DNA of 64,000 nt from a bacterium (lineage in GTDB: Bacteria; Patescibacteriota; Minisyncoccia; Phycocordibacterales; Phycocordibacteraceae), in assembly GCA_021802705.1 (NCBI GenBank), contig JAJZRL010000004.1:13862-77861 (forward strand). Reading direction: 5' to 3'. Below, piece by piece: positions 24,041 through 61,640 of the stretch (positions are counted from its first letter, which is position 1; each line of letters opens with the position of its first letter). The position numbers were made by a program, and so were the translations under genes. Under the pieces are notes generated by a model. It saw nothing but the letters and a program-made list of their open reading frames with translations, ran no database searches and was not told where the DNA came from.

Positions 24041-24112
24041 GCGGGGTAGAGGAGAGGTACCTCGGGAGGCTCATAACCTCCAGACGCCGGTTCAATTCCG
24101 GCCCCCGCAACA
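24041..24112 (+). tRNA. tRNA-Met/Ile2-like (anticodon CAT); integration target
   Basis: cloverleaf: acceptor GCGGGG, D-stem GAGG/CCTC, anticodon stem GGAGG/CCTCC with loop CTCATAA, T-arm GCCGG-TTCAATT-CCGGC; acceptor stem looks 6 bp, so score moderate. Confidence 0.65.
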
Positions 24113-24221
24113 AGGTAGTGCGGCCTGCCATACAGACCGTCCGGCATCGAAAGTGCCAAAAATCAGTTCAAGACCGACACGATTAAAACTTGCGAAAGGC
24201 GCCCGAAAGGGCGCCTTTCGC
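24111..24221 (+). ncRNA. conserved ~100-nt junction element, copy C1, ending in terminator GCGAAAGGCGCCC-GAAA-GGGCGCCTTTCGC
   Basis: paralogous copies at 47074-47230 and 61508-61640 (partial at 59829-59980); compensatory changes in internal hairpins; each copy ends in a different terminator. Confidence 0.45.
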
Positions 24222-24250
24222 AATGCATCTTCACGGGAATGAGGTTCTCG

Positions 24251-24520
24251 TCATTTCTTTCGGGACACTTTATACACCGCCAGAATCTCGCTGATGGCTT
24301 TCTTCTGCGCTCCGCCCCGCATCTGCTCGACCACATGCGTCGAGAGGTGGTTCTCAAGCATCGCGTCCTCGACTGCCGAAAGCGCCTGCCGTATCGCGGA
24401 CGCCTGCGTTATCACGTCGATGCAATACGTATCGTTCTCGACCATCTTCTCCAACCCTCGTACCTGCCCTTCGATAGTTTTCAACCTGCGCACCACTTTC
24501 CGCTTGACGTCGGGTTTCAT
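24251..24520 (-). CDS. csoR: CsoR/RcnR-family metal-sensing transcriptional repressor
   Basis: W-X-Y-Z ligand positions (YCIDVITQ ... ENHLSTH), ~90 aa all-helical. Confidence 0.85.
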   Translation of the reverse strand: MKPDVKRKVVRRLKTIEGQVRGLEKMVENDTYCIDVITQASAIRQALSAVEDAMLENHLSTHVVEQMRGGAQKKAISEILAVYKVSRKK

Positions 24521-24527
24521 AGGTCCA

Positions 24528-24548
24528 TAATACCCCTAGGGGGTGTTA
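24528..24548. promoter_or_regulatory. candidate CsoR operator palindrome ATACCCCTAGGGGGTGT in divergent promoter region
   Basis: resembles GC-tract inverted repeats of known CsoR operators (TACCC-N-GGGTA type); sits between csoR and the cop operon. Confidence 0.55.
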
Positions 24549-24582
24549 GGTCAAGAATGCTTACTCGCATAATCCTTTTTGT

Positions 24583-25176
24583 ATGAAAACATTCGCACTA
24601 GGCACATTTCTCGCGGCTCTCGCACTCGTCGGTTTCGGCGGTGCGGCGCACGCGCAGATGATGTACGGCAACGGCTACGGCTCGGGCATGATGGGCTACT
24701 ACGGCAATACGGAAACGTCGACCTCTACCGCGACGACGACGAACGCGGGCGATGCCGCCGGTGCCGCGCTCTGGCAGAAACTCTCCTCTGGACAGGTCTC
24801 CTGCGGCTCACTTTCCCAGAGCGACTTCGCGACCCTCGGCGACTACGTTATGGGCAACATGATGGGCGCGTACCACGATCAAGCCGACCAGTACATGACG
24901 CGCTCTCTCGGGCAACAGGGAGAGGAACAGATGCATATCGCGATGGGGGAACGCCTCTCTGGTTGCAACCCGTCTGCCGCGTATCCCTCGGGCGTATCGG
25001 ACTTTTACCCGATGATGGGTGGCTGGGGGCCAGGCAGCTACTCAATGATGGGCTTCGGTTCTGGCGTATTCGACTACAGCGCCTTCGGCGGCATCGTCAT
25101 GGCGCTCGTGTGGCTCTTCGCGATTATCGGCGTCGTAGCATCGATCATGTGGCTCGTGCGGCGCACGGATAAGTGA
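24583..25176 (+). CDS. secreted Met/Gly-rich repeat protein with C-terminal TM anchor (putative Cu(I)-binding)
   Basis: signal peptide, repeats MMGYYG / MGNMMG / MMGGWG / SMMGFG, C-terminal hydrophobic helix; first gene of csoR-regulated operon. Confidence 0.5.
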   Translation: MKTFALGTFLAALALVGFGGAAHAQMMYGNGYGSGMMGYYGNTETSTSTATTTNAGDAAGAALWQKLSSGQVSCGSLSQSDFATLGDYVMGNMMGAYHDQADQYMTRSLGQQGEEQMHIAMGERLSGCNPSAAYPSGVSDFYPMMGGWGPGSYSMMGFGSGVFDYSAFGGIVMALVWLFAIIGVVASIMWLVRRTDK

Positions 25177-27308
25177 GTATGTATTTACCAGAACACGAAC
25201 AAAGCGAAAATAAAACAACCGGACACTACACATGCCCGATGCATCCCGAGATCATGCAAGAGCGTCCCGGCATCTGCTCCGAATGCGGCATGAACCTCGT
25301 TCCTGCGGATAGGGCGAGTGATCATGACCATTCGCATGATTGGCATGACCGGCACGCCGGACACTCGACCGCCATGTTCTTGCGAAAGTTCTGGGTGAGC
25401 TCCGTGCTCTCGATTCCGGTCGTGCTGTACTCATCGATACTCAATATACTTTTCGGTTTTTCTGCCCCGGCGTTCCCCGGCTCCGCCTACATCCCGCTCA
25501 TTCTCGGCTCCATCGTCTTCTTCTACGGCGGTTCCGTCTTCCTCGCGAGCGCGTGGCGCGAGATCAAGGCACGCGTGCCCGGCATGATGACGCTCATTTC
25601 GGTCGCCATCCTGACGGCGTACCTCTGGAGCGTCTACGCGGTTTTCTTCGGACAGGAACCGCTCCTCTGGGAACTCACGACCCTTATCGTCATCATGCTT
25701 CTCGGCCACTATATCGAGATGCGAGCCGTCTCCGGCGCACAAGGAGCGCTCAAAGAGCTTTCCAAACTCCTACCGGACACTGCAGAGGTTATCCGCGGAA
25801 CCGAGACGAAGGTCATTCCGCTCGCTGATCTAAAGGAAAACGACGTCGTGCTCGTGAAGCCCGGCGACAAAATCCCGGCGGACGGATCAATCATCGAAGG
25901 CGAATCGGAGGTGAACGAATCGATGGTTACCGGCGAATCGAAACCCGTCAATAAGCGCATGGGAAGCGCGGTCATCGCGGGCACAGTCAATGGCGACGGA
26001 GCACTCAAGATACAAGTCGCACACATAGGTGAGAAAACATTCCTCGCGGGCGTCATGCGACTCGTCGCGGAAGCGCAAGCCTCCAAATCGAAGCTTCAGA
26101 TACTTTCCGATAAGGCGGCGTTTCTCCTCACCGTCGTCGCCATAGGCGTCGGCGTCGCGACGTTCGGCGCATGGGTCCTGCTCAGCGCGGGGATCGCCTT
26201 CGCGGTCTCGCGCGTCGTCGCGGTCTTGGTCATCGCTTGTCCGCACGCGCTCGGCCTCGCCGTGCCCTTGGTCGCTTCCATTTCCACGACCAAGGCAGCG
26301 AAGAACGGCTTTCTCGTGAAGCAGCGTCTTGCGCTCGAAGCCGCGCGGAGCATAGACACGGTGCTTTTCGACAAGACCGGCACGCTCACCAAAGGCGCGT
26401 TCGGCGTTACGGGCGTCTTCGCGGTATCCGATCATTCGGAGGACGACGTGCTCGCGCTTGCCGCATCGCTTGACGCGCTCTCCGCACATCCCATTGCTCA
26501 AGCGATTGTCGCAGATGCAAAAACAAGAAAGATTCAGTTCTCGGAAGCGAAGAGTCATACCGCCATCAAAGGACGAGGGGCTAAAGCAATGATCGGGGGT
26601 AAGGAAACGCATGTGGGCGGTCCGGCGCTGCTTGAGAGTCTAGGGCTCGCGATACCGGCCGGTATCCTCGAAAAGGTTACGGCTGCAGGATCTCAAGGGC
26701 AGACCGTCGTGTTTGTCGTGCAAGAGAATAGTGTCCTAGGCGCAATCGCGCTCGCCGATGTCGTTCGCGAAGAATCGAAAGAGGCGGTACGAGAACTCAA
26801 GGCGATGGGCATCCGCTCGGTGATGATTACGGGCGATTCCGAGGATGTCGCCAAAGCGGTTGCGGCGGAAATCGGCCTCGACGAGTACTTCGCGCGTGTT
26901 CTCCCTGAACAGAAGTCGGCGAAGGTCAAAGAGCTTCAGGATAAGGGACGGAAGGTCGCGATGGTGGGCGACGGTATCAACGATGCCCCCGCTCTCACCC
27001 AGGCCGACCTCGGCATCGCGATAGGCGCAGGCACGAATGTCGCCATCGAGTCGGCGGGCATCATTCTCGTGCGCGACGACCCGCGCGACATTGCGAAGAT
27101 TGTCCGGCTCTCCAAGATGACGTACTCGAAGATGATTCAGAACCTCTGGTGGGCGGCCGGGTACAACATCTTCGCCATTCCGCTCGCGGCGGGCGTCCTC
27201 GCGCCGTGGGGCATCTTTCTCCAGCCCGCCTTCGCGGCAGTCCTCATGTCCGCGAGCACAGTCATCGTCTCAATAAATGCTGCGCTTTTGGGGCGACGGA
27301 CGTTATAA
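25173..27308 (+). CDS. copB: CopB-like P1B-type ATPase (CPH subtype) with N-terminal heavy-metal-binding domain
   Basis: YTCPMHPEI...[11 protein letters not shown]-terminal metal-binding module, His-rich stretch, CPH in TM6, [17 protein letters not shown]; paralog of 3180..5081. Confidence 0.9.
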
Positions 27309-27315
27309 TACTCAC

Positions 27316-27714
27316 ATGTCGATTCTGAAGCGTGCGTTCGCCAGCTCGTTCATCGCCGCTCTCATTCTTATGTCGGGCGTGTGCGCGGTAACGTATGCAC
27401 CGCCATCGATGCATTCTTCAGGCATGGGAATGGTCGGATGTCCGTTCGCGGGACACGGCGGCGCGGTGTGCGGCATGAGTCCTCTCGATCATCTTGACGG
27501 GATGCAGCTTGCGCTCGCCGCAGTCGTCCCGAGCATCGGGATACTGTTTTTGTTACTTCTTGCATCGTTCCTCGTAGCAGTTCTCGCATCAGTATCGGAA
27601 TGGATTCCTGTCCCGCTCGCGCTTTCATACGAACCGCCTGATACGAGAGTGCGTACGTACGATCCTCTTAAGCGCTACGCCGCACGCGGCCTACTGAATC
27701 CAAAGATTCCCTAA
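27316..27714 (+). CDS. small secreted/membrane protein with Cys/Met/His cluster (putative metal-binding)
   Basis: internal ATG of track ORF 27277..27714; signal peptide; HSSGMGMVGCPFAGHGGAVCGMSPLDHLDGM; C-terminal TM. Confidence 0.45.
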   Translation: MSILKRAFASSFIAALILMSGVCAVTYAPPSMHSSGMGMVGCPFAGHGGAVCGMSPLDHLDGMQLALAAVVPSIGILFLLLLASFLVAVLASVSEWIPVPLALSYEPPDTRVRTYDPLKRYAARGLLNPKIP

Positions 27715-27768
27715 TGATTCCATTGATGTTTATTAACACGGCACAAACGCCGTATTCTTACAAACACC

Positions 27769-28482
27769 ATGGAACCATCATCGAAATTCACCCAGTTTGC
27801 TACGCCCGCCGCCGTGCTCCTCGGAGGAGCGTTCATCGCAGGGGCTATGATATGGAATAATGCGCACCCGAACTCGCAACCACTCCAAGCCGGGAGTCAG
27901 CCGCAACTCGCTGTTGCCGCAGACGTATCGAAGGTCAAGACGGCTGGTGAGCCTTTCATTGGCAGCCCGAACGCGCCTGTCACGATGGCGTACTGGTACG
28001 ACTACCAATGCCCGTTCTGCCAGCGCAACGAGGAGCAGACGATGCCGCAGATAATCAAGGACTACGTTGACACCGGCAAGCTCAAGATCGTATTCAAGGA
28101 TTACCAATTCCTCGGTCCCGATTCGCAGACGCTTGGGAAATTCTCCCGCGCCGTGTGGGAGGTCGCGCCCGACAAGTTCTACCAGTGGCACAAAGCAATC
28201 TACGACAACCAGGGCACGGAAAACACCGGCTGGGCGACCGACGCAAAGATAACATCAATAACGACCGGCGTTCTTGGCGCGTCCGACACCGCGAAAGTCG
28301 CCGCGCTCGTGAAGTCAAACGGCGACGAGTACCAAAAAGAAATGGATGCGGACAGGGCCGAAGGCACCGCGATGGGCATTTCCGGCACGCCGGGCGCGAT
28401 CATCGGCAAGCAGTTAATCTCGGGAGCGCAGCCGTACGCGGCATTCCAGACGGCGATAGATGCGGCTCTGAAGAGCCAATAG
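27769..28482 (+). CDS. DsbA-family thiol:disulfide oxidoreductase
   Basis: thioredoxin-fold CPFC active site (YDYQCPFCQRN), signal anchor. Confidence 0.8.
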   Translation: MEPSSKFTQFATPAAVLLGGAFIAGAMIWNNAHPNSQPLQAGSQPQLAVAADVSKVKTAGEPFIGSPNAPVTMAYWYDYQCPFCQRNEEQTMPQIIKDYVDTGKLKIVFKDYQFLGPDSQTLGKFSRAVWEVAPDKFYQWHKAIYDNQGTENTGWATDAKITSITTGVLGASDTAKVAALVKSNGDEYQKEMDADRAEGTAMGISGTPGAIIGKQLISGAQPYAAFQTAIDAALKSQ

Positions 28483-28486
28483 CCCC

Positions 28487-29149
28487 ATGCGGAGAAAATA
28501 TGTTCCTATCCTCATCATTGCCATTGCTGCGGTGATCGGAGGGTACCTCATCGCAAAACCTCATACGCCTGTGGCGAATGCCGAAATTGCCGCGGAGTAC
28601 GCAAAAATCCCTACCGAAAGCGGTAAGGCGGCTTTCATGACTCAGAGCAATAACCTCACGACGCCGGTCGATTCGACGCTCGTCGACCTCGACTCGCAAC
28701 TCATCACCTGCTCTCCGAATGTCGACAGTTTGCTTTCGGCAAGTCCGTCAGTCGGCGGCAGCTGCGTCGCGGGTGGGACGAATCTCGCCTCGACAACCGG
28801 CATGTACCTGGGTGGTCAGTGTTGCGGGGCCATGAAAGACCTTAGCGAGTACAACAAAGAGCTACAAAATCTGCAACAGTACAAAAACATTCCCGATGTG
28901 CCGATGAATCCGTACAAGACGCCGATCGCAATCGCGAAAAAGTGGATTGATTACGACAACGCTACGACGCTCACGCCGCAGGAACAAACCATCATGGACC
29001 AAGCGATGAAAACGTCGAAAGAAGGTCCTTGCTGCTGCAAATGCTGGCACTATTTCGTCAACGAAGGTATCGCCAAGAAAATGATCAAAGATTACCACTA
29101 CAGCGCGCAGCAGATCGCCGCGTACTGGGATACCTCAAGTATCTGTTAA
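28487..29149 (+). CDS. secreted Cys-rich hypothetical protein
   Basis: signal anchor; Cys clusters CSPN, GGSCVAGG, GQCCGAMKDL, GPCCCKCWHY. Confidence 0.45.
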   Translation: MRRKYVPILIIAIAAVIGGYLIAKPHTPVANAEIAAEYAKIPTESGKAAFMTQSNNLTTPVDSTLVDLDSQLITCSPNVDSLLSASPSVGGSCVAGGTNLASTTGMYLGGQCCGAMKDLSEYNKELQNLQQYKNIPDVPMNPYKTPIAIAKKWIDYDNATTLTPQEQTIMDQAMKTSKEGPCCCKCWHYFVNEGIAKKMIKDYHYSAQQIAAYWDTSSIC

Positions 29150-29161
29150 CCAACTAACATT

Positions 29162-29578
29162 ATGAAAACAATTATTGGAATCGGCGCAGCCGTTGTTCTG
29201 CTTCTCGTGGGCGGTGCGCTGTGGTCAAACGGCCTGGCAAACAGCAATCCCGATATTGTTTCTCGAAGGGGTATTCACTGGCACCCGCAACTCACCATCA
29301 TGGTCGGAACGACGACCGTGCCGATCCCTGCTGGTATTGGACTCGGTCCATCCGAAATGCCCATCCACACGCATGACGATTCCGGAACGATACACCTTGA
29401 GTTCTCGGGCGTCGTTCGTAAAGAGCAACTGACGTTGGGCGAGTTCTTCAGAGTATGGGGTAAAGATATGCGCTCGTTCGGCACAAATATGCGCATGACG
29501 GTCAATGGCGTGCCTAACACCGATTACGAGAATTATGTTATGCGAGATGGAGATAAGATCGTCTTGCAATTCGATTAA
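29162..29578 (+). CDS. secreted hypothetical protein
   Basis: signal peptide ORF, operon-like spacing. Confidence 0.4.
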   Translation: MKTIIGIGAAVVLLLVGGALWSNGLANSNPDIVSRRGIHWHPQLTIMVGTTTVPIPAGIGLGPSEMPIHTHDDSGTIHLEFSGVVRKEQLTLGEFFRVWGKDMRSFGTNMRMTVNGVPNTDYENYVMRDGDKIVLQFD

Positions 29579-30102
29579 CGTACAATCCTTGCCCGTTCGT
29601 GCAACGTGCGGCGCAGATACCGCCATTCGTGCCATGTAAGCGCGATGACGACGAGATCGAGGACCGTGATGAGGATGAGCAGGAGCGAGTGCGTGAAAGC
29701 GAAGCGGTAGAGCTGGTAGACGATAAAGAGGCCGAATACGACCATGGCGGTCGGGTAATACCAGAGCCGTTTCCGGAGGAGGCCCACGATGAGCCAGAGC
29801 TTCACGACGCCGTGCGCGATGAGGTAGATCGCGGCAAAATCACGCGCGCCGATGGAGAGGTTCTGAGCGGTGTGAAGCAGATAACTTGCGAGTTGGTCGT
29901 GCGGATCCTCGGCGAACTCAGCTCGCGTGATGAACAAGACTATCTGCACAAGCAACTCCTTCGAGACGAGATAGGTGGCGATGCCCGAGACGATTTCACC
30001 AAGCGCAAAAACAGCCTTCAGCCACAAGCTGACGTCGAAGACGAGGTGGATATTCCTCTCGCTAAGCAATCGCTGTATGCCAGAGGTGTTTGTATGCGGC
30101 AT
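29575..30102 (-). CDS. hypothetical polytopic membrane protein
   Basis: 4 predicted TM helices. Confidence 0.4.
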   Translation of the reverse strand: MPHTNTSGIQRLLSERNIHLVFDVSLWLKAVFALGEIVSGIATYLVSKELLVQIVLFITRAEFAEDPHDQLASYLLHTAQNLSIGARDFAAIYLIAHGVVKLWLIVGLLRKRLWYYPTAMVVFGLFIVYQLYRFAFTHSLLLILITVLDLVVIALTWHEWRYLRRTLHERARIVR

Positions 30103-30535
30103 AGGTCAATAGTACCGCCACGGCGGATATGACGATACTGCCTGCCACGTCGAGTACGTGACGCACGCCGACGTACACGCGGCCGATCGCGACGAGAATC
30201 GCGAGGACCCAGAGCGCGATACCGAGGCGCCGGTTCCAGAGTGTGCCGATCATGGCGATGGCAGAGACGAGGAGCGCATGGTCGGACGGGAATCCGTTAT
30301 CCGGCGCATGCGGTACGAGCGGCGTGAAATGTCCGACAACGAATGGGCGAGGGTCGAAGTACAGATGGTTTGCAAGCAGTCCAAGCACGAGAGCAAAGAG
30401 GCCGGCGGGAATCGCGAAGAGCGCCCGGCGTTTCCACGAGTCGCGCGGCTGAAGGAAGAAGTACACGCCGAGAATCACGACAGAGACGAGGTACAGGTAT
30501 TCGGCGGCGAAGATGAAAAACGCATCCATCGTCAT
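30062..30535 (-). CDS. PAP2-family phosphatase (undecaprenyl-diphosphatase-like)
   Basis: PSDH acid-phosphatase motif (FPSDHALL), polytopic. Confidence 0.7.
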   Translation of the reverse strand: MTMDAFFIFAAEYLYLVSVVILGVYFFLQPRDSWKRRALFAIPAGLFALVLGLLANHLYFDPRPFVVGHFTPLVPHAPDNGFPSDHALLVSAIAMIGTLWNRRLGIALWVLAILVAIGRVYVGVRHVLDVAGSIVISAVAVLLTYAAYKHLWHTAIA

Positions 30536-30578: not shown

Positions 30579-31904
30579 CTATTTCGTAAGTGCAATCTGT
30601 TTGTCTTTCATCACGATCTTCCCGCGCATATATTCGAGCAGATCGCGCTTCTCCTCGACGGTGCCATTTTGTAGCAAGTACTTGGCGTAGCGGCGCACGT
30701 CCATTTCCTTCGCCTTGAGCCGCTCTCCCGGATTCCGGGTAGCCGCCTGGAGCTTGTTGTACCGGGCGACCTCTGCCTCGATAACCTTCCGCGCTCCAAT
30801 CTCGTCAAGCTCGACCTGGTCGATCATGGCCGCAAGCTGCTCGATGAGGTTGTCCTCGCGGATGTACGGATTCGCACACGGCACGCCCTTTGACTTCGTG
30901 CAGGTATAGTAGATGTAAGTGCGCTCGGTGCCGTCGCTCTTGATGATTTTCTTCTTCTCGACACCCGTGATGCCCGAGCCGCATTCGCCGCAGACCATGA
31001 TCTTCGTGAAGGTGAACGAGTGCTGCGTGTGCTTCGGCTTGTGATCCTCGAGGAGCTTGTCCTGCACGAGCTGATACAGGTCCCGGCTGATAAGCGCCGT
31101 GTGCCTTCCCGTATACCAGTTGCCGCTCCCTCGCGGGTATTCGTACACGCCGCAGTAGAAGGGATTTTTGAGCGTCAGGTACACCGAGCTCACGGACAGG
31201 TGCTTGTTATTCTTCGTGCGGAAATCGAGGTCGTTCTTGAGCCAGGCGTAAATCCTCCGGCCGCTCCACCGCTCGTATCCGGCCTTCTCGAACATCTGCT
31301 TCACGATGGGGGAGCGTATCGGGTCTACCACCATCTCGCACTTGTGGTCGCGCCGCCTGTCGTTCGCGTATCCGACCGGCGCGACGCCCGGTAGAAGGCC
31401 CATCTCCGCGCGGGTCTTGAGGCCGCGCTTCACGTTGATGCGCTTGTTGTCGTTTTCGAGCTTCGCCTGGCTCCCGAGAATCATGAGTAAGAACTTCTCA
31501 TTCGGATTGTTCGAGAATTTCTGATTGTACGTGCGTATCTCGCGCAGAAGCCCCGCGTCCATGAGGTCGATGACCTTGCCGAGGTCGCCAGCATTTCGGG
31601 CAATGCGGTCTGGTGCCCAGGTGAGGAGTCCATCGAATTTTCCGACCCGCACTTCGTCGATAATCTGGTTGAAGACCGGCCGCTGACCCGTCTCTTTGGC
31701 CGAGTGCGATTCGCGCTTTACCTCGATCACGTCGATGCCGTCCCGTTCGGCGAGCGCCGTCATCTCCTTGATCTGGCTATCTATCGAGAGCGCCTGGACC
31801 TCGTCCTGCTCCGTCGATTTGCGGGCGTACAGGCAGTACCGGATCGGGCGCACCTCTTCGACGACCGGGACGCTCCCCATTTCCCTTGCTAAGGTTGTCT
31901 CCAT
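30579..31904 (-). CDS. large serine recombinase (resolvase catalytic domain + recombinase domain + zinc ribbon)
   Basis: YARKSTEQD catalytic Ser region, CGECGSGITG zinc ribbon, coiled-coil tail; paralog at 50998..52353. Confidence 0.9.
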   Translation of the reverse strand: METTLAREMGSVPVVEEVRPIRYCLYARKSTEQDEVQALSIDSQIKEMTALAERDGIDVIEVKRESHSAKETGQRPVFNQIIDEVRVGKFDGLLTWAPDRIARNAGDLGKVIDLMDAGLLREIRTYNQKFSNNPNEKFLLMILGSQAKLENDNKRINVKRGLKTRAEMGLLPGVAPVGYANDRRRDHKCEMVVDPIRSPIVKQMFEKAGYERWSGRRIYAWLKNDLDFRTKNNKHLSVSSVYLTLKNPFYCGVYEYPRGSGNWYTGRHTALISRDLYQLVQDKLLEDHKPKHTQHSFTFTKIMVCGECGSGITGVEKKKIIKSDGTERTYIYYTCTKSKGVPCANPYIREDNLIEQLAAMIDQVELDEIGARKVIEAEVARYNKLQAATRNPGERLKAKEMDVRRYAKYLLQNGTVEEKRDLLEYMRGKIVMKDKQIALTK

Positions 31905-31990
31905 ATCCCTTGTGGTTATTGGCTAATGGCACAGCCACAAGGAATGACGCAACCCCTGCTGGGCGTCCAGACCTGAGTCCGGTACCCATT
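31905..31990. other. att-like site abutting recombinase 5' end: CCTTGTGG-N19-CCACAAGG palindrome followed by AATGACGCAAC-N14-GTCCAGAC
   Basis: same architecture at 52320-52400; half-site only at 35686-35730. Confidence 0.5.
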
Positions 31991-32035
31991 TCTCGCCCTC
32001 TTGCGCGGGATATTCAAAAGAGTAGCCTTAAGGCC

Positions 32036-54284: not shown

Positions 54285-54296
54285 AGGTGAACAGGC

Positions 54297-54560
54297 AAGC
54301 CCCTTCGCAAAGCCCTAATACTAAGTTAGGGTCGTGGGCAGGCTCAATTTGAGTTATTATGTTCTTGTAAACCGAATAAAGAGGCCTAAACCGGCTTGAG
54401 AATCCTTGATTCTCCCGGCATGGCCGCAAATCGCGACCAGCGTACTGAACCCGTCATCGGGAGCGCTGGTCGCGTTACAGGGGGAAACTCTTGTAGGGCC
54501 TTCGGGCCCACCCGGTGGCGGGTTCAGTGCGTCTCTCCATCGGGCATTACAAATCGCGAC
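54297..54560 (+). ncRNA. candidate structured RNA (5' leader motif, copy B)
   Basis: see copy A. Confidence 0.55.
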
Positions 54561-54570
54561 CAGCAAATAT

Positions 54571-55042
54571 GGATGTTCAATCTGCACCAAAGAAGTTTTA
54601 CAAGAAGTGGTGGTTCTGGCTCATTATAGTGCTCGTTCTTGGCGGCCTCGCGTCGACGCCTGATTCCCCGAGCACGACTGCAACAACGGCGACCGCCTCT
54701 GACACGCAAAGCGCTCCGACCCCGAAAGAAGCGCGAACGCTCGGACAAGACGCGTACCTGCGTCTTCCGAATAACAGCGATCCGAAACAGATCCTCTGCC
54801 TCGCGCCGACCAAGAATGTGTACGACGAGTACACCAAGGCGCTCATGGCTCAGGACTACCAAGGCATTCTTGATCTTTCCGCCCAAGGGCTCTTCTGCGT
54901 TCATAACGGCTCCGAAGTGAAAGTCATTGATACGAGCGTCCTGCTCACGAGAGTACGCGTGGTCAAAGGCGCATCGGATGCCGACAGCGACAATGTGGGG
55001 CAGGCCGGATGGTCCGCGAGCGAGTGGATAGTTGATCGGTAA
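54571..55042 (+). CDS. membrane-anchored protein (paralog of 39046..39612 N-terminus)
   Basis: internal ATG MDVQSAPKKFYKKWWFWLIIVLVL of track ORF 54515..55042. Confidence 0.55.
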
Positions 55043-55495
55043 TCACGGTGCCGCTTCGTTCCATGGGTCTGTCAGTGAGCCTAGTCTCCTGTCTCGCTTG
55101 ATGTGATTTTCTCGTGTCGTCTCTTCGTTTGCGTGTTGGTATTCACGTGGATCGACCACTCGAATCTGCACGGTCTGGACAGGCGGTGCTTCCTTGATAT
55201 ACGGAGCGGGCTTGCGCGGTCGGTAGTAGCGCTTTGAGTTCGCTTCGAGAATCAGTTTGATCGCACCGAAGTGTTCCTTGTCGGCCATCTTCACGAGTTT
55301 GCTCTCGGCATGGTCGACCAGCGTGTCCCGCCCGCGTTTCAGCGAACGATCGTACTTCTTTTTGAAGTCAGGGTCGTCCTCGAGCCAGCGATAGATGGTC
55401 GCTTTGCTGATACCGGCACGCTTGCACACCACCGATACGATCGGCAGGTTCTCGAGTTCATCGAGAAATTTCTGTTTATCATCAGGCGGCACCAT
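55043..55495 (-). CDS. HTH DNA-binding protein, putative terminase small subunit
   Basis: VCKRAGISKATIYRWLEDDPDF; paralog of 41165..41614. Confidence 0.5.
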   Translation of the reverse strand: MVPPDDKQKFLDELENLPIVSVVCKRAGISKATIYRWLEDDPDFKKKYDRSLKRGRDTLVDHAESKLVKMADKEHFGAIKLILEANSKRYYRPRKPAPYIKEAPPVQTVQIRVVDPREYQHANEETTRENHIKRDRRLGSLTDPWNEAAP

Positions 55496-56882
55496 GGATC
55501 TTAACGGCCTTCTTCCCAGTCTCCATTTCCCAACGCCGTTTTATGACTTCAGCGTACACGGGACTCTTCTCCATGAGATAGCAACGGCGATGCATCTTGA
55601 TGGATGCGATGAGAGTCGATCCGCTCCCGCCGAATGGCTCAACGATAAGGTCGTCACGCTTCGTGAGCACCTTCACATACGGGATGAGGATCTCGAGCGG
55701 CTTGGTGCCGAAAATGATGCCTTGTCCTGAGGACTGAAGGTCGGCCGCTTTGTACTCGATGAAGTCGGTCGGCTGGATCTTCTTTCCTTTTTCATATCCC
55801 TCCCAGTGTGGCTTACCCGAGATAGCGTAGAGCGCCGTTTCGTACTCGTTATCGAGGAGTTCGCCTTCGCTATCAAGGTTGAGATGCTCGGCATCATCCT
55901 GCGACGAGCCGACCACCGCGATGTCGTGCTTGCTGAACAGCTTGTACTTCCCGGCGTATCCCTGATTGCGGTTTGGCAGATGCCACACAATCATGTTCTT
56001 CACCTTCCAGTATTTCTCCATCTCGCCCCAGATGGTGCGGATGTTCTTCCAGTTCTCATACACGACGATGTGGAAGTCCGGTTTCGCAATTTTCGACACA
56101 TTGCCCATCCAGAGTTCAGTGAAGTTATCGGGCAGTGAATCGGTCTCGAGATAACGGCGGTCACGCTTCGCACCGAAGCCGGTCACGGCCTCGCCATTCT
56201 TTTTCTTCTTGCCGTGAAGATAGTCGAGGATGTATGGAGGATCGGTGAAGCACATATCAGCACGAGCATCGCCCATAAGGGTGAGCATGTCGGCCTCGAC
56301 GGTCGAGTCGCCACACATCATCCTCGACCCGTCGATTTCATAGATATCGCCCTTTTGCACTTTGATCTCGGTGATATCAAGCTTCTCGAGTTCCTTCTCG
56401 AGGTCGAATTTCTCAGGATTATCCTCGGCAGGGAATATGTCATCGAGGTCTTCGCTTGAGAAGCCGACCTCGGTGAGGAGGGAAGCATCGAATTCCTTGA
56501 GGAGCTCGAAGTCCCATTCACCGACCGCCTTGTTCAAGCGAAGACAGAGGTCGCGTTCTTTCTCGATATCGGGAATCGCGAGATACACAACGGGTACTTC
56601 TTCGTGGCCCATGTCCTTCAGCACTTCATACCGAAGGTTGCCGCCGATGATAATGCCTTCGCGCCCGGGCGCATTGTTCACGAGGATTGGATCGGCTACG
56701 CCATGGCGTTCGATGCTCTCGCGCACAGGAAGTTTCGTTTCGTCGTTAAGAACTCGTGGGTTGTACTCCGCGTGGCGGAGGGAAGTAATGGGCACATATA
56801 CGATATTGAGTTTGTTTTCCATAGATGTTGTTTTTAATTGGTAACGAAAACGCCCGAACAAGCGCTCGTGTCGATGACACAA
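55482..56882 (-). CDS. ParB-like nuclease domain fused to DNA methyltransferase
   Basis: N-terminal ParB box, C-terminal IVEPFGGSGSTL. Confidence 0.8.
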   Translation of the reverse strand: MCHRHERLFGRFRYQLKTTSMENKLNIVYVPITSLRHAEYNPRVLNDETKLPVRESIERHGVADPILVNNAPGREGIIIGGNLRYEVLKDMGHEEVPVVYLAIPDIEKERDLCLRLNKAVGEWDFELLKEFDASLLTEVGFSSEDLDDIFPAEDNPEKFDLEKELEKLDITEIKVQKGDIYEIDGSRMMCGDSTVEADMLTLMGDARADMCFTDPPYILDYLHGKKKKNGEAVTGFGAKRDRRYLETDSLPDNFTELWMGNVSKIAKPDFHIVVYENWKNIRTIWGEMEKYWKVKNMIVWHLPNRNQGYAGKYKLFSKHDIAVVGSSQDDAEHLNLDSEGELLDNEYETALYAISGKPHWEGYEKGKKIQPTDFIEYKAADLQSSGQGIIFGTKPLEILIPYVKVLTKRDDLIVEPFGGSGSTLIASIKMHRRCYLMEKSPVYAEVIKRRWEMETGKKAVKIHGAA

Positions 56883-56920
56883 ACGTTTGTTCGGGCGTTC
56901 CGAACTTGCTCGATTGCTCG

Positions 56921-57172
56921 CTAGGCGAGAGAGACGCTAAGCGCGTCGTTCACACCTGTCGATTCCTTGATGTTGAGAAAGATCGCTCCGAAACCGCACT
57001 CTTCGCACACGACTTTTGCTTGATCGCCGTATTCGATTCGCGTCTTCACTGGCCGACCCCGATAGAACTTGATTAGCTCGAGCTCTTGTCGTCCCGACCG
57101 CCTAGCGATAGGTGTATCGCAGAAGCAGTACACCAAATCGCCCACGTCAGCGAATTGATCGGCGCGTTTCAT
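56921..57172 (-). CDS. hypothetical protein
   Basis: ORF only. Confidence 0.3.
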   Translation of the reverse strand: MKRADQFADVGDLVYCFCDTPIARRSGRQELELIKFYRGRPVKTRIEYGDQAKVVCEECGFGAIFLNIKESTGVNDALSVSLA

Positions 57173-57372
57173 TTCTGGTTGCGAAGCGCCTTGAGCACTC
57201 CGTCGAGGGAAGGGGTATCGAACTTCTCCTTGAGGGTGCCGAGCTTCGTATTGCCGTTCACATGATTGAACTCGGGGTAGTCCTTGCGAAGGTTTTTCGC
57301 GAGAGCGTCCGAGCGTTCCTCACGGTAGCGGCCGTCTTGATTGCGACTGCGGGTTCCTTTTGGTACTGGCAT
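57169..57372 (-). CDS. small conserved hypothetical protein (paralog of 44135..44329)
   Basis: shared motif KDYPEF-N-NGN-LGTLK. Confidence 0.5.
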   Translation of the reverse strand: MPVPKGTRSRNQDGRYREERSDALAKNLRKDYPEFNHVNGNTKLGTLKEKFDTPSLDGVLKALRNQK

Positions 57373-57415
57373 AGCGGGGTAGGGGTTAGGGTCGGATAAT
57401 GTCGACCTACTATCA

Positions 57416-58162
57416 GTGTATTCTCGCTATGCACAGTGTCAAGTATTAGGGACTTGCAGACCTTACCGATTCCATGGTATACATCATGTAATGCACCCAA
57501 TTCAAGAACAACTTCTAGCGCTTTCACGTAGGAAAAACCTAGCTGAAATGAGCCTTCGTGAGATGGCCCAGGAAATCGGCGCGACTGATGCATCTCCTCA
57601 GAAAATTAAGCACCATTTGATGCAATTGCAGAAGAAGGGATTCATCATTATTGATCGCCCTCGCGGCGTCATGAAGGCCGGGGCAGAAAAGCCCGCATGG
57701 GCGAAGGGGTTCATGGAAAAGGCAAAGACACTGCTCCGTATTCCAGTCATCGGCACTGCGAACTGCGGTCCCGCCACCATTTATGCAGAAGAGAACTATC
57801 AGGGCTTTCTCCGTGTATCAAGCAGGCTCGCCGGAGTGCGATCTCCCGAAGGGATTTATGCAATCAAGGCTGATGGATCGTCCATGAATCGTGCCGATGT
57901 CGATGGTCGCAAAATTGAGGACGGTGACTATGTCATCGTAGATTCTAAAATTGCCGAGCCGAAGAACAATGACATCGTCGTTGCAATCATTGACGGGAAG
58001 GCGACGATCAAGCGTTTCATCCGCGATGACGCGAACGAACAGATCGTTCTCAAGGCCGATTCTTCAAATGACTATGAGCCGATCTATCTCCACGCTAATG
58101 ATGATTTCACGATAAGCGGAAGAGTGATCAGTGTCGTGAAGAAACCAACGCGCGTAAATTAA
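57416..58162 (+). CDS. LexA/CI-like repressor with HTH and S24 peptidase domain
   Basis: N-terminal wHTH (LREMAQEIGATDASPQKIKHHLMQLQKKG), C-terminal S24 domain (IKADGSSM ... K in DGKATIKRF); true start may be an internal Met. Confidence 0.7.
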   Translation: MYSRYAQCQVLGTCRPYRFHGIHHVMHPIQEQLLALSRRKNLAEMSLREMAQEIGATDASPQKIKHHLMQLQKKGFIIIDRPRGVMKAGAEKPAWAKGFMEKAKTLLRIPVIGTANCGPATIYAEENYQGFLRVSSRLAGVRSPEGIYAIKADGSSMNRADVDGRKIEDGDYVIVDSKIAEPKNNDIVVAIIDGKATIKRFIRDDANEQIVLKADSSNDYEPIYLHANDDFTISGRVISVVKKPTRVN

Positions 58163-58163
58163 T

Positions 58164-59060
58164 ATGTCCTGGGAAGATACATTTCGCACATGGGGAGCTG
58201 CTCCGAGCGCAACGGAACAACAAAAGATGGAAAACGCTGAGACGGCAATTCGCAAGGCTATTAAATCGAATGATCGGCTAGCTGCTATGGATATCACGAT
58301 TGTCTCTCAAGGTTCTTATCGCTCGAAAACAAATGTGCGTCTCGATAGTGATGTTGATATTGCGGTTCGTCTCAACTCGACGTTCTTCGCCCGGTATCCT
58401 GAAGGCAAAAACCGTGAAGATTATGGAAATGTGGAAGGGAGTATTTCCTTCAGAGAGTTCAGGAATCTTGTTCACATCGCTCTCGGGGACTACTTTAATT
58501 TTGCGAATGTCACGCCAGGGAATAAGGCTTTCGATATCCATTCAAATTCTTATCGCGTGGACGCAGATGTAGTTCCCGCGTTTGCGTATCGTTCCTATTA
58601 CGGCAATGGTTTCGATGACTACAGTGAACCGACCGGTACCGCTTTTCTCTATGGCGGCGAAGGTCACCGTATCGTGAATTGGCCGGTGCAAACTTATGAG
58701 AACGGAAAAGATAAACATGATCGCACTGGCCAGCGACATCGCAAGATAGTGCGTATATTGAAGCGTTTGCGAAATAAGATGCAGGACGAGAAAATAGCCG
58801 CCGCGAATGACATCGCCTCTTTTCTGATCGAGAGCATGGTGTGGAATGCTCCCGACGGGCATTTTGGGAACATAGACTACAAAGACGATGTCCGCGCCGT
58901 TCTCGCGTACTGCTTCAATGAGACGCTTCTTGCGGGGAGCCATCCAAAGCTTCGAGAGGTTAATGATCGGAAACTCCTCTTCGGTTCTCATCAGTCATGG
59001 ACACGAGAGCGAGCGCACGATTTCTTCTCAGCAGCTTGGGATTACATCGGATTCAAATAG
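58164..59060 (+). CDS. SMODS/CD-NTase-like nucleotidyltransferase
   Basis: pol-beta NTase signature GSYRSKTNVRLDSDVDIAV plus downstream RVDADVV third acidic residue; ~300 aa with helical C-domain. Confidence 0.65.
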   Translation: MSWEDTFRTWGAAPSATEQQKMENAETAIRKAIKSNDRLAAMDITIVSQGSYRSKTNVRLDSDVDIAVRLNSTFFARYPEGKNREDYGNVEGSISFREFRNLVHIALGDYFNFANVTPGNKAFDIHSNSYRVDADVVPAFAYRSYYGNGFDDYSEPTGTAFLYGGEGHRIVNWPVQTYENGKDKHDRTGQRHRKIVRILKRLRNKMQDEKIAAANDIASFLIESMVWNAPDGHFGNIDYKDDVRAVLAYCFNETLLAGSHPKLREVNDRKLLFGSHQSWTRERAHDFFSAAWDYIGFK

Positions 59061-59062
59061 CC

Positions 59063-59683
59063 ATGGAAAAAGTTAATCATACCGTCGCGCTCTATGCCCA
59101 GTTCATTACGTTCTTGGTTATTTGGTTCGCGTCGATGATTGTCTCTGGGCTAGTCGCGCCGATGGATTTTATTAGCGCGCTCAAGCTCATCCCGACCGCC
59201 ATATCTGTCTATGCTTTCGTTGCTTTGATTTTCACGAAGTGGGTTTGGCGCTGGCCGATTTTTCAGGGGTGGTTGATTAAGGTTCCGGACTTGCGCGGAA
59301 CGTGGCGTGGCGAATTGAAGAGCGATTGGATCGATCCGAAAACAGGTCAATCGATCGATCCAATCCCCGTCGTTCTGTTAATTCGTCAGAGCTTTTCGAA
59401 CATAAATATCACTCTCATGACGAAAGAGTCGACCAGCTACAGTACCACCGCCAGCATAAATGCCGCAGTTAATGGTGAGGATCTCTATCTGACCTATAAC
59501 TACACGAATCGCCCGAAGGCGTCCCTTTGGGACAGGAGTGCTATTCATGACGGTGCAGCTATCCTGAAAATTATCAAGCGGCCGAATCGCCGCCTAGAGG
59601 GTGAGTACTGGACCGGTCGCAAGACGCGAGGTGATCTTTCACTTCAGTTCGATTCTAAAGTTTTGGCAGAGAGCTTTTCATAG
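59063..59683 (+). CDS. 2-TM membrane protein with beta-rich C-terminal domain (Cap15/SLATT-like putative effector)
   Basis: TM helices ALYAQFITFLVIWFASMIVSGL / LIPTAISVYAFVALIF; 3 nt after NTase stop. Confidence 0.55.
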   Translation: MEKVNHTVALYAQFITFLVIWFASMIVSGLVAPMDFISALKLIPTAISVYAFVALIFTKWVWRWPIFQGWLIKVPDLRGTWRGELKSDWIDPKTGQSIDPIPVVLLIRQSFSNINITLMTKESTSYSTTASINAAVNGEDLYLTYNYTNRPKASLWDRSAIHDGAAILKIIKRPNRRLEGEYWTGRKTRGDLSLQFDSKVLAESFS

Positions 59684-59828
59684 GGGGTGTGTCTCATTTG
59701 TCTCATTTTGGTTCAAGACCGATACGCTCCTAAAACGCATTGAAAGTACCGAAGCACGCCCGATCTGCCTCAAAGCCGGATGAGACCGTTAGGCCTAATT
59801 CTAGGAGATAGAAGGGGGCGGGGAAGGT

Positions 59829-59980
59829 CCTTAGATACCTTATATGGTGGGGTGCACGACCGACTCGGGCAACACGGTTGTGACGCCAGGAACCGGTACC
59901 GGTTCCCGTCAAAGTCGGTACTGTACCGGCGCCCCTGTTCAGCCGAAAACCCGCGCAAATTCAATGCGCGGGTTTTCGGC
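59829..59980 (+). repeat. partial junction element, copy C4, ending in terminator GCCGAAAACCCGCGC-AAATTCAAT-GCGCGGGTTTTCGGC
   Basis: CCTTAGATACCTTATATGGTGGGGTGCACGACCGACTCGGGCAACA matches the 5' part of copy C2; GGTTCAAGACCGATACG at 59720 matches the 3' core of the other copies. Confidence 0.45.
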
Positions 59981-59989
59981 CATGTAGCA

Positions 59990-60490
59990 TTTCCAACGTA
60001 TTTCCAGTTCAATTCCCTTTCTGGATCTTTTCTGCCAACTGGTTGCAAGTCGTGTCGCCTGCTCGGCGTGTGCGGAGGTGGTTGTCGGATGGAAGCAAAG
60101 GTCTGCTGTGGGGATCCCTCCGCTCCAGATCCGTATTGTGTGCCGGAGGATGCTGACTTTGCACTAAAGTCTCTTCAGGCTCATCTCGATCGTCGCCAAG
60201 GAAGCACTCCTTTGATTCAAGGTGATGGGCGGTTTGTTATCTTGCCACACCGGAGCAGAGAGGAGCCATTTGGGATGACGGCCCGCGTGAGTGGACAACC
60301 ATACACTTACCTCGACCAAACGGGTATGAAAGTATTCCGGCAGATGCAGGTTGGTGTTGTGTACCAAGTCGGAGACGCGCGTATTCAATGGGGCACAATG
60401 AACCCTTTGAATTTCGTGCGTGGTTTGATTGCTCGCGGTACAGCGGAGATGGTTGACGGAGATAACCAAAAAGTGGTACTCTCTGGCTGA
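59990..60490 (+). pseudogene. 3' fragment of a radical SAM SPASM-domain protein (truncated by element junction)
   Basis: SPASM signature CKSCRLLGVCGGGC with no radical SAM core upstream; the N-terminal part of track ORF 59780..60490 is junction repeat sequence. Confidence 0.4.
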
Positions 60491-60548
60491 GCCGTCTAGA
60501 AGTTAGGCGCACTCAGACACGCGTGTAGTTCAACGAAAGGAGCTCCTT

Positions 60549-60704
60549 ATGAACCAAAACGAAGGGTTCGTTCCCCTCATCTGGAACGGCGATGAGAGCA
60601 ATCTCGAAAGCTCTCGCGCGGCACTTCACACGGCCTCGTTGCAGGACCGCAATCCCTCCTGGGGTGGCGATTGCTGCGATGACGGCTGCGAGAACGGCGG
60701 CTGA
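60549..60704 (+). CDS. small RBS-led peptide ORF (51 aa, Cys/Asp-rich C-terminus)
   Basis: AAAGGAG 7 nt upstream of ATG; predicted MNQNEGFVPLIWNGDESNLESSRAALHTASLQDRNPSWGGDCCDDGCENGG; frame depends on the length of an A-run near 60598-60601, where the printed bases and ORF-track frames disagree by one base. Confidence 0.35.
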   Translation: MNQNEGFVPLIWNGDESNLESSRAALHTASLQDRNPSWGGDCCDDGCENGG

Positions 60705-60785
60705 GAAGCCGACTAGGGCGGGAGCGAAAGCTTCCGCCCGAATTTTTTATGTGACTATTTATCTGATTTACGTAATAATTACAAA

Positions 60786-61412
60786 ATGATCACTCTAGCT
60801 ATTTCGTTTAGTGAAAACAGCGAATTGAATCGCGTAAGAGAAACCCTTAAGAGGTTGCCATGGTATCGCGAACATAAATATCCAGACACTTTCGCCAAAT
60901 TGCCCTTGGATGTAACCGAGACGAGTGCTGAAGCTGCAATAGTCGCGTCTGTCTCAAAAGAATACGATCCCCAATTGTTCAAGGAGACTGAAGAATATGT
61001 CCAGGGGAAATGGAATGTTGTCGTAGAGGGTTTTGAAGAACTGCGGAAGATGCGAGGAATAGAACTACGCGATTCTTATTCAGTTGTGCTGACTAAGTAC
61101 GGAAGTGGCGGTAGTTACAATGGTGCAATCGGGGAGCTGATTATACGAATCGGTTCGCAAAAGAGAAGAGAGCAGATCGTCGGTGTCATCGTGCATGAGA
61201 TAGTCCATATGACGATTCAGCATCTCGTAGATCGGTATGAAGTCCCTCATTGGCGCAAGGAAAAATTGGTGGACATGCTTGTTGAAAGATATTTTCCTGC
61301 TTTGGAAATGAGCCAGAATATTCCCGAAGATGTCTCAATAGTAGAAAGCACTTTCAATTCGCTGTTTCCTGATATAGGGGCTATCGCCAAGGAGATAGGA
61401 GCAAATAAATAA
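60786..61412 (+). CDS. hypothetical protein with HExxH motif (putative metallopeptidase), low-GC
   Basis: VIVHEIVHM. Confidence 0.4.
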   Translation: MITLAISFSENSELNRVRETLKRLPWYREHKYPDTFAKLPLDVTETSAEAAIVASVSKEYDPQLFKETEEYVQGKWNVVVEGFEELRKMRGIELRDSYSVVLTKYGSGGSYNGAIGELIIRIGSQKRREQIVGVIVHEIVHMTIQHLVDRYEVPHWRKEKLVDMLVERYFPALEMSQNIPEDVSIVESTFNSLFPDIGAIAKEIGANK

Positions 61413-61507
61413 CTCAGCATTTTTTCGAGGGATTGAGAGGGCGTCGGAATCGAACCGATTTGTGAACAAAATAGTGAGGAAATATATGGGGGCTGTGAGT
61501 CGGTGAT

Positions 61508-61640
61508 ATTCCGGCCCCCGCAACAAGGTAGTGCGGCCTGGTCATCCAGACCGCCCGGCATTAAAAGCGCCGAAAATCAGTTCAAGACCGGTACGGTCAA
61601 AAACACAAAAGTCGCGACGTATGTCGCGACTTTTGTGTTT
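61508..61640 (+). repeat. distal junction: 16-nt duplicate of tRNA-Met 3' end (ATTCCGGCCCCCGCAA) followed by junction element copy C3 and terminator ACACAAAAGTCGCGAC-GTAT-GTCGCGACTTTTGTGT
   Basis: identical over 33 nt to the tRNA end and C1 start, then ~80% identity. Confidence 0.6.

Follow-up and report, generated by a model that had tools for sequence, protein, structure and literature searches.

The locus considered here raises the question of how about 37 kb of accessory genes came to be placed between a tRNA-Met(CAT) gene and the first host gene past the island, encoding an S66 peptidase (61667-62707, + strand), in a patescibacterial genome of the family Phycocordibacteraceae. The window, that is, the whole stretch of DNA analysed, comprises 64,000 nucleotides of contig JAJZRL010000004.1 (assembly GCA_021802705.1, positions 13,862 to 77,861 of the forward strand); coordinates refer to the window unless a related locus (numbers with the prefix L) is named. 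A sequence-only reading of this DNA had interpreted the tRNA gene and a distal copy of its 3' end as an attL/attR pair enclosing several serially accreted integrative elements. The 37.4-kb block is a strain-variable insertion that comprises, within 24112-61524, two complete elements (A, 23 kb, and B, 12.7 kb) and a 1.65-kb remnant. The elements share one architecture, in the order tRNA / cargo / large serine recombinase (LSR), TerL, TerS, ParB-methylase / S24 repressor / defence cargo, and it is likely that they were inserted successively, in tandem, after tRNA-Met as members of an LSR family with a terminase operon. Beyond the earlier reading, the analysis assigns the recombinases to an enzyme class, resolves the block into two elements plus a remnant and links it to a large LSR family with this operon that targets tRNAs.

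The tRNA-Met(CAT) gene was confirmed on the + strand at 24040-24110/24111 with ARAGORN and Rfam (RF00005, 58.8 bits), and its 3' half (gene annotated as 24040-24111) forms the host-side left arm (B) of the attachment site. A sequence of 33 nt (ATTCCGGCCCCCGCAACAAGGTAGTGCGGCCTG) was found to be identical at 24095-24127 and 61508-61540, both by reading of the sequence and by a repeat search, as had been claimed before; the two copies, C1 and C3, extend to 83 nt at 90.4% identity (24095-24176 versus 61508-61590, blastn), so that the previously described diverged continuation is about 90% identical. An exact repeat of this length cannot arise by chance in 64 kb. C1 (attL, 24095-24223, + strand) consists of the last 16 nt of the tRNA, a 17-nt shared core and the element-borne trailer of A, whereas C3 (attR, 61478-61640, + strand) consists of a degenerate tRNA-Met 3' half, the exact repeat and the native host trailer with its terminator. 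A separate G+C-rich terminator hairpin closes each of the two copies (24191-24223 in C1). The assembly of the whole stretch is supported by two independent public contigs that overlap for 9 kb at 100% identity, one of which (ERZ27237050 k141_1151069) covers the window from 27811 onward, while the other (DAHVXN010000005.1) stops at 36884 because its end falls inside the gene for the IS256-family transposase.

An unoccupied site, which the sequence-only reading had named as the appropriate check, was present in a conspecific metagenome contig (L005, sample ERZ27237541) that runs from tRNA-Met through a C3-type trailer to the S66 peptidase gene and lacks 37,413 bp. L005 starts within the tRNA-Met gene at window position 24054 and is 99.96% identical to window positions 61508-64000. 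Another contig of this sample terminates in the tRNA and shares 41 nt with L005. Since its sequence after the 33-nt block is that of C3, not that of C1, the exchange is placed within 24095-24127, the inserted length amounts to 37,413 bp, and C3 represents the native downstream sequence. The 37.4 kb are therefore an insertion, bounded on one side by the tRNA and on the other by a direct repeat of the tRNA 3' end, with an unoccupied site in a close relative, and the attL/attR interpretation is upheld. The gene for the CsoR-type repressor of the island was located on another contig (L153) of the same sample, which indicates that the population is mixed. Contigs in several samples stop at C1 and at C2, in a manner that fits heterogeneity of the junctions. 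Exact-protein look-ups (flank, CsoR, ThsB and Mod) returned one empty site and no contig with A alone or B alone beside the tRNA. The insertion itself is secure.

Each complete element encodes one recombinase, LSR1 in A (30579-31904, - strand, 441 aa, motif YARKSTEQ) and LSR2 in B (50998-52353, - strand, 451 aa). The two proteins are 88% identical and both show the Pfam domains Resolvase, Recombinase and Zn_ribbon_recom: the catalytic domain PF00239 was matched at 3.9e-22 and 4e-21, the YARKSTEQ motif is kept in both, and PF07508 and PF13408 follow on the C-terminal side. Both matched the solved structures of the SPbeta, A118 and TP901-1 integrases (PDB); the best NCBIfam match of LSR2 was CcrB (5.4e-35, 121 bits versus a cut-off of 900). 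Among the 46 open reading frames (ORFs) scanned there was no Phage_integrase match, the only recombinases being the two LSRs and the IS256-family transposase, and thus no tyrosine integrase of the kind expected for a tRNA-linked island. The two recombinases noted in the earlier reading are present and can now be typed as LSRs. From these sequence comparisons, the LSR, as the only recombinase of the elements, most likely catalyses insertion. LSRs normally neither make long repeats nor use tRNA genes, which are the textbook landing sites of tyrosine integrases.

Relatives were collected by a scan with LSR1 and LSR2 (one genome per species), which yielded at least 303; the locus set used below consists of the best 80 genome loci of these at least 303 (53-78% identity) and about 33 IMG/VR loci, giving at least 113. 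Almost all of the best 80 genome loci belong to metagenome-assembled genomes (MAGs) of Patescibacteria. Downstream of the LSR stop codon, a convergent tRNA was detected with ARAGORN in 56 of these 80 loci, and 3 further loci carry a tRNA-Met that is split by an insertion of ~230 nt. Counted within 3 kb of the LSR, tRNAs lie downstream in convergent orientation at 40 of 87 loci and co-directionally at 5 of 87, and upstream, on either strand, at none of 93. The targets include Ser, Gln, Met, Arg, Gly, Glu, Val and Trp tRNAs. As a side observation, the split tRNA-Met genes, which are missed by ARAGORN, are interrupted at the anticodon loop by ~230-250 nt in L010 (13368-13617), L007, L015 and L089, and the insertion in L010 scores as a group I intron (RF00028, 63 bits).

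The first 20-60 nt past the tRNA fall into a few conserved types that are common to different hosts and even to different isotypes, with the trailer CAAGGTCGAyGCkGAkGC found past Arg, Glu and Gly tRNAs. These types track the LSR clades (LSR identity 72-95% within a type and 54-61% between types), which argues that the trailer beside an occupied tRNA is element-borne and co-evolves with the integrase, and that exchange takes place at the extreme end of the tRNA. Long attL/attR repeats were mostly absent from the 80 genome loci, the exceptions being the tRNA-Met group, L057, L068 and L066/L070; such a lack is expected for serine integrases, and it is the tRNA-Met clade that is unusual in carrying a long trailer copy. 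The flanks of the window (GatA, a 188-aa protein and tRNA-Met) show synteny to MAGs of Paceibacterota and Kaiserbacteria (GatA identity 74-77%) in which tRNA-Met is likewise occupied by an LSR element; this synteny and identity suggest that the host of the window is a member of that group (Parcubacteria/Kaiserbacteria-like). Elements in tandem were also found in L014, L057 and L068. A pattern scan of metagenomes returned four loci, two of them with attP-like or tandem junctions and one from another species.

The gene order of the family was obtained by ORF clustering over 113 loci, with the LSR as reference (113 loci). A ParB-methylase or methylase (58 loci) and TerS (53 loci) lie upstream of the LSR on the same strand, TerL (40 loci) lies directly upstream of it, and a divergent S24 repressor was recovered in 10 loci at the clustering threshold used; no conserved portal or capsid cluster was found among the 113 loci. 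In A, the corresponding operon (39724-44123, - strand) consists of TerL (39724-41196), TerS (41165-41614), a DNA methylase (41611-42384), the ParB-methylase (42344-43618) and an uncharacterised 117-aa protein (43770-44123), and faces an S24/LexA-like repressor gene (44402-45178, + strand, Pfam). Its TerL matched PHROG phrog_38 (8.6e-74) and combines a T7-type TerL N-terminus (NCBIfam) with a psiM2 nuclease domain, and its TerS matched TerS families. The core of B (55043-56882, - strand) contains TerS (55043-55495, Pfam Sf6_terminase) and the ParB-methylase (55482-56882, ParB_N and N6_N4_Mtase), followed by an S24 repressor gene (57416-58162, + strand, Pfam). In the compact relatives L070 (13.6 kb) and L091 every gene could be accounted for, there is no other recombinase, and the same three cargo slots hold a cyclic-oligonucleotide-based anti-phage signalling system (CBASS), a type III restriction-modification (R-M) system or a reverse transcriptase.

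Two internal junction copies that had been reported before, C2 and C4, are real. C2, the A/B junction (47040-47243, + strand), joins the right-end arm of A, which is degenerate and tRNA-3'-half-like, to the trailer and terminator of B; it is 83% identical to C1 over 133 nt (47107-47239, repeat search; nhmmer E=1.9e-30), with the shared core at 47125-47145. C4, the B/remnant junction (59790-59985, + strand), joins the right-end arm of B to a trailer of the 'general' tRNA-Met type with a terminator. By simple identity C4 is weak (65%), yet it was found clearly by profile (59843-59975, E=1.8e-30); it carries the core variant GCAACACGGTTGTGACGCCAG at 59869-59889, and its trailer is 91% identical over 100 nt to the host-side junction copy of another MAG (L014, 815-914). 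A profile made from the C copies recovered all four in the window at E-values of 1e-27 to 1e-30. Neither C2 nor C4 has a true tRNA 3' end: both carry a diverged tRNA-3'-half-like arm (GGGTGCAAGACCGCTGCGGGCAAC), in which a T-arm-like AGCGG-GGTGCAAGA-CCGCT-GCGGGCAAC stands to the left of the shared GCAAC, and their left arms resemble each other for ~60 nt further upstream. Alignment of the four copies, another check put forward with the sequence-only reading, showed that the core common to C1, C2 and C3 is only GCAAC followed by AAGGTAGTGCGGCCTG, which places exchange at the 3' terminus of the tRNA or in the trailer, and the tRNA is never interrupted; identity blocks among the junctions confine the exchange to GCAACAAGGTAGTGCGGCCTG. 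Other combinations of arms and trailers were found in metagenomes, namely a general-type arm attached to a C2-like trailer with copper genes behind it (L087) and a different pseudo-tRNA arm attached to the copper element (L154). Serial accretion, as proposed earlier, is backed by the hybrid nature of junctions C2 and C4, by the two parallel cores and by the similar arrays in L014, L057 and L068.

Several smaller features were observed around the junctions. The minus-strand T-arm fragment mentioned in the earlier reading was located at 61431-61450 (GGCGTCGGAATCGAACCGAT, tRNA T-arm/acceptor) and is part of a recurrent 'type-2' left arm, with homologous, C3-like arms containing such minus-strand fragments in L088 and L090. 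Opposite-strand T-arm/acceptor fragments of the form GGAATCGAACC recur 45-75 nt from the core at this position and in L088, L090 and L068, and are doubled in tandem in L090; they may be older inverted insertions or a component of an arm type. Additional C-tail motifs, (GTTC)AAGACCGAYACG, precede the C2 and C4 cores by 80-160 nt (46972-46982, 47036-47046, 59711-59739 and 59783-59793), with 9 occurrences in the window versus 1.8 expected; they could mark older junctions or serve as binding sites.

We propose that the host site would consist of the 3' half of the tRNA and its trailer, and the element site of a degenerate tRNA-3'-half-like arm and an element-borne trailer copy with its own terminator. 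The element core is an S24 (LexA/CI-like) repressor gene facing an operon of ParB-methyltransferase, in some cases a methylase, TerS, TerL and LSR, and variable cargo occupies three slots, beyond the repressor, between TerL and LSR, and between LSR and tRNA. Comparative data strongly support an exchange by the LSR at the end of the tRNA; the crossover itself would lie within GCAAC-AAGGTAGTGCGGCCTG and would leave the tRNA intact with a replacement trailer and terminator. The element trailer is 85-90% like that of the host, such that the new tRNA-proximal junction resembles the empty site and could accept the next element. Re-use of attL as a landing site, as suggested by these similarities, would explain both the array and the growing decay away from the tRNA. 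Decay does rise with distance from the tRNA, A being complete, B lacking TerL and the last unit being reduced to fragments, and the newest element is presumably the one next to the tRNA. From the presence of TerS and TerL without head genes, it may further be supposed that the elements spread in a satellite-like manner by hijacking the capsids of helper phages.

A number of observations weigh against this reading. The tRNA stretch in L005 measures only 41 nt and lies at the contig end. The arms are alike over more than 100 nt, unlike the canonical short cores and dissimilar attP and attB sites of serine integrases, so that the standard logic of serine-integrase directionality may not apply. 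In an ungapped test for dyad symmetry around the core, the best arrangement gave 12/24 matches versus a shuffle mean of 11.9, and a mirror arrangement of GGTTC (T-loop) and GACC, considered as a candidate because serine-integrase sites are expected to show one, was accordingly not significant. The scanned genes revealed neither a replication module nor a recombination directionality factor. A carries an IS256-family transposase gene and B lacks TerL, and either element may be inactive; the satellite lifestyle rests on gene content. Finally, the trailers of L149 and L154 are mosaics of C-copy sequence (C1- and C3-type in L149), which indicates that homologous exchange between C copies also occurs.

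The alternative that survives best is that A and B are two decayed temperate prophages that lost their head, tail and lysis genes and were back-filled with cargo, the terminase being a leftover that mobilises nothing. The TerL of A does belong to a genuine phage terminase family, a more distant homologue of which (42%) is located in a normal module of TerL, portal, protease and major head genes (L103); this indicates that the terminase is phage-derived and that the elements are without the rest of the head. The missing TerL of B, the IS256 insertion in A and the fragmentary distal unit are likewise as expected of decay, and an S24 repressor opposite a divergent operon is what a lysogeny switch typically looks like. 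However, the order ParB-methyltransferase, TerS, TerL, LSR recurs without head genes in dozens of loci from many lineages, including loci in IMG/VR (a prediction-based collection), with TerL and LSR intact, and chance decay, acting independently, would not arrive at a single compact gene order. Moreover, the island is polymorphic within the species, and its cargo end occurs in other junction contexts: the copper end is joined to tRNA-Met here and to a non-tRNA arm in other samples (L154 and L087). Elements A and B gave no portal, capsid or tail match, and of the modules of an intact prophage they retain only TerS and TerL, without head, tail or lysis modules. We consider decayed prophages an unlikely explanation.

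A much less probable alternative is that RecA-type homologous recombination between the ~130-nt C repeats, for instance after uptake of foreign DNA, built the block with the LSRs as passengers. It would account for C copies that are 83-90% identical over 80-130 nt, far beyond what the sites of serine integrases need, and for the C1/C3 mosaic trailers of related strains such as L149. Most relatives at other tRNAs, however, lack a long repeat and nevertheless have an identical placement with respect to the tRNA end; the trailer type co-varies with the LSR clade; and, since C2 and C4 have left arms without homology to the tRNA, homologies of the tRNA flank alone could not have produced the A/B junction. 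That the C copies are small structured RNA genes or generic terminator repeats of the core genome, with no insertion at all, is effectively refuted, since, despite a terminator hairpin with compensatory changes at the end of each copy and 78-91% conservation of the C element between distant hosts, the interval is absent from the conspecific L005 and every C copy lies at an element boundary. Searches for the C element as an RNA gave only the two tRNAs and two LOOT RNAs at the Rfam gathering threshold and only terminator-like noise in a permissive scan of 46900-47300 (E<=10), and an internal hairpin of L014 (GGAAC/GTTCC) has not been preserved in L015, L009 or L010.

Successive LSR-mediated insertion is thus the preferred reading, and the elements can be set against known systems accordingly. 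The closest mechanistic analogue is the staphylococcal cassette chromosome (SCC; SCCmec, ACME and COMER, with Ccr recombinases), in which an LSR likewise places the element right at the 3' terminus of a conserved housekeeping gene and leaves that gene active, and which shares the element-borne copy of the target end, flanking direct repeats, tandem stacking and a cargo of R-M and copper-resistance genes. SCC differs in its target (rlmH/orfX versus the end of a tRNA), in its recombinases (a CcrA/CcrB pair versus a single LSR) and in lacking TerS, TerL, ParB-methylase and S24 repressor, all of which are part of the core here, in a patescibacterial host. The window does not belong to SCC proper, given a Ccr match of 121 bits against a threshold of 900 and insertion at tRNA-Met, not rlmH. 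Ecologically, the closest analogue is the tycheposons of Prochlorococcus, which form tRNA-linked arrays in a streamlined genome with partial tRNA copies between elements, include cargo-carrying forms as well as TerS-bearing forms that resemble phage-inducible chromosomal islands (PICIs), and occur in cultures that are mixed for their presence or absence. Tyrosine recombinases are present in 910 of 937 tycheposons, many with replication genes (bioRxiv 10.1101/2020.12.28.424599). In the present elements, by contrast, an LSR lies in the terminase operon, and no tyrosine recombinase or replication genes were found in Pfam scans of the ORFs.

The gene content recalls that of phage satellites such as PICIs, including the Staphylococcus aureus pathogenicity islands (SaPIs), and the PICI-like elements (PLEs) of Vibrio cholerae, which are ~10-20 kb in size and combine an integrase, a repressor, TerS and anti-phage cargo in the absence of virion genes. 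PLE is described as using an LSR (PMC9410903, PMC9638900). An integrase, a master repressor and TerS, without virion structural genes, are found in A and B, whereas a primase/helicase and origin module of their own was not detected in A, B, L070 or L091, nor any other replication module in these four; capsid-remodelling genes were not found, TerL is present besides TerS, and integration is at a tRNA end. Classical tRNA islands and prophages share the tRNA at one boundary, the 3'-end repeat at the other, the restored tRNA and tandem accretion, and differ in using tyrosine integrases, which are absent here, and in that most relatives of the present elements lack a long direct repeat.

The three-domain recombinase, with its matches to the SPbeta, A118 and TP901-1 integrases, is shared with the serine-integrase phages Bxb1, phiC31, A118, SPbeta and TP901-1, which have cores of a few bp and integrate inside protein-coding genes. 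A survey of mycobacterial prophages reports short common cores for serine integrases and attB sites in tRNA or tmRNA genes only among tyrosine-integrase systems (PMC10654092). In the largest published LSR survey, covering thousands of enzymes, targets are classed by protein gene and tRNA is never mentioned (PMC10083194). Literature searches for Patescibacteria with serine recombinases, integrases or tRNA islands returned nothing relevant, an absence that is no proof of an undescribed family, and described mobile elements for bacteria of the candidate phyla radiation (CPR) were not found in these searches. The element family is widespread in CPR bacteria and apparently undescribed. Taken further, Patescibacteria as a whole may harbour head-less TerS-TerL-LSR elements, probably satellites that supply a terminase of their own, whose LSRs diversified to many tRNA 3' ends and which bring a replacement trailer and terminator, keep the occupied site re-usable in this way and stack into depots; we put this wider proposal forward tentatively, with somewhat more doubt than confidence.

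The cargo of A (~24112-47129, GC about 57%) occupies all three slots. Between tRNA and LSR1 (24251-30535) lie genes for a CsoR-type repressor, a 197-aa protein of unknown function, a P-type Cu ATPase, a DsbA-like thioredoxin, DUF2127 and PAP2 proteins and further unknowns (Pfam). The slot between LSR1 and TerL (31886-39612) contains a DUF6119/TIGR04141 protein, the MamI restriction enzyme and methylase, the IS256-family transposase (35801-36934), a DUF2779 protein, a LOOT RNA (38871-38988, + strand) and a membrane protein (39046-39612) similar to superinfection-exclusion (Sie) proteins. Beyond the repressor follow, on the + strand, PDC-M50A (45186-45608), ThsB-like TIR (45611-46216) and E2-like (46204-46926) genes (Pfam, PADLOC). 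This three-gene set (45186-46926) and the 'sporadically distributed' DUF6119/TIGR04141 protein adjoining the MamI R-M genes (31886-33652) are poorly known candidate defence cargo.

In B (~47130-59873, GC about 49%), the slot on the junction side is filled by a type III R-M system (47266-51001, + strand; mod 47266/47281-48720, res 48680-51001; Pfam), as is the corresponding slot in L070 and L091. The middle cargo (52413-55042, + strand) comprises a PIN_12 protein, a 240-aa protein of unknown function, a LOOT RNA (54383-54509) and a Sie-like membrane protein, and the distal slot a two-gene CBASS (58164-59683, + strand) with CD-NTase (58164-59060) and Cap15-like 2TM effector (58997-59683), matched in PADLOC at 4.4e-111 (cyclase) and 8.5e-75 (effector). 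In relatives, the TerL-LSR slot holds a reverse transcriptase (L091, 11375-12490) or a pair of large helicase and methyltransferase genes (L095, 10305-16636), which suggests that it is a general hotspot for defence genes. Of the segments into which the sequence-only reading had partitioned the interval, the delimiting junction copies stand, and the roughly seven units give way to two elements and a remnant; its copper, R-M, IS256 and low-GC segments are not separate units, all of them being cargo inside A and B.

The remnant (59874-61524, 1.65 kb) holds, in the segment 59986-61430 (+ strand), a SPASM-like gene fragment and a 208-aa ORF (60786-61412) without family match. The fragment is part of ORF 59780-60490, of which the N-terminal part is translated C4 junction and the C-terminal part bears a SPASM-like CxxxCGGGC motif; CRLLGVCGGGCRMEAKV in this ORF resembles the SPASM region of a radical SAM gene located downstream of an S51 peptidase gene in the same genome (blastp E=0.001). 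This motif is the only basis that remains for the radical SAM remnant described earlier, ORF 60786-61412 having no detectable family. In L090, an S51 peptidase gene is located upstream of a C copy, with no LSR. ORFs 23422-23988, 43770-44123, 53562-54284, 56921-57593 and 60786-61412, as well as a conserved protein of 207-210 aa in L070 and L091, gave no match in Pfam, PHROG or NCBIfam.

Further observations concern recurrent non-coding features. The two LOOT RNAs (Rfam RF03000, 79.7 and 68.7 bits) are each located directly upstream of a small membrane-protein gene weakly similar to superinfection-exclusion proteins, and the two Sie-like proteins have a common N-terminus (KKFYK.WWFW). LOOT RNAs also occur within related LSR elements of two MAGs (L014, 4365-4483, - strand; L007, 4011-4133, - strand), so that LOOT appears to be a component of the element family; it is possibly the 5' leader of the Sie-like gene. 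Just upstream of both LSR start codons there is a motif, ACAAGGAATGACGC(N14-16)GTCCAGA, with copies at 31937-31971, 35691-35725 and 52358-52392. A hairpin with compensatory changes (CCTTGTGG..CCACAAGG versus CCTTGTA..TACAAGG) stands ahead of the motif at both LSR starts, and the third copy flanks the block of DUF6119 and MamI R-M genes, as if this block were a cassette inserted at the motif. Elsewhere in the window, a tRNA-Ser(GCT) gene (7865-7952, - strand) adjoins the region 3180-7731, in which two P-type ATPases of contrasting GC (0.53 versus 0.61-0.68) and no LSR were found. Its trailer (ATTGACAACTTATTATCGGCGTG...GCGACCC) resembles the tRNA-Ser trailers of Ser-targeting relatives of the window LSR, so that another landing site, either empty or decayed, may be present here.

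The genomes of CPR bacteria are small, about 1 Mb, and to our knowledge their phages are almost unknown. Against this background, the analysis explains 37.4 kb of strain-variable sequence in the window. A clade of LSRs acting at tRNA ends would extend the target range of an enzyme class that is widely used in genome engineering, with subclades that are each tied to their own tRNA-end site, several of them using more than one isotype, and with sites that are short, nearly universal and predictable. For the biology of the hosts, the elements would provide a handle on the exchange of defence systems in CPR bacteria (CBASS, ThsB-like TIR, type II and type III R-M and reverse transcriptases) and of metal resistance, and may represent phage satellites in this lineage. 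If the proposal holds, such arrays would be the main depots of defence and accessory genes in these tiny genomes.

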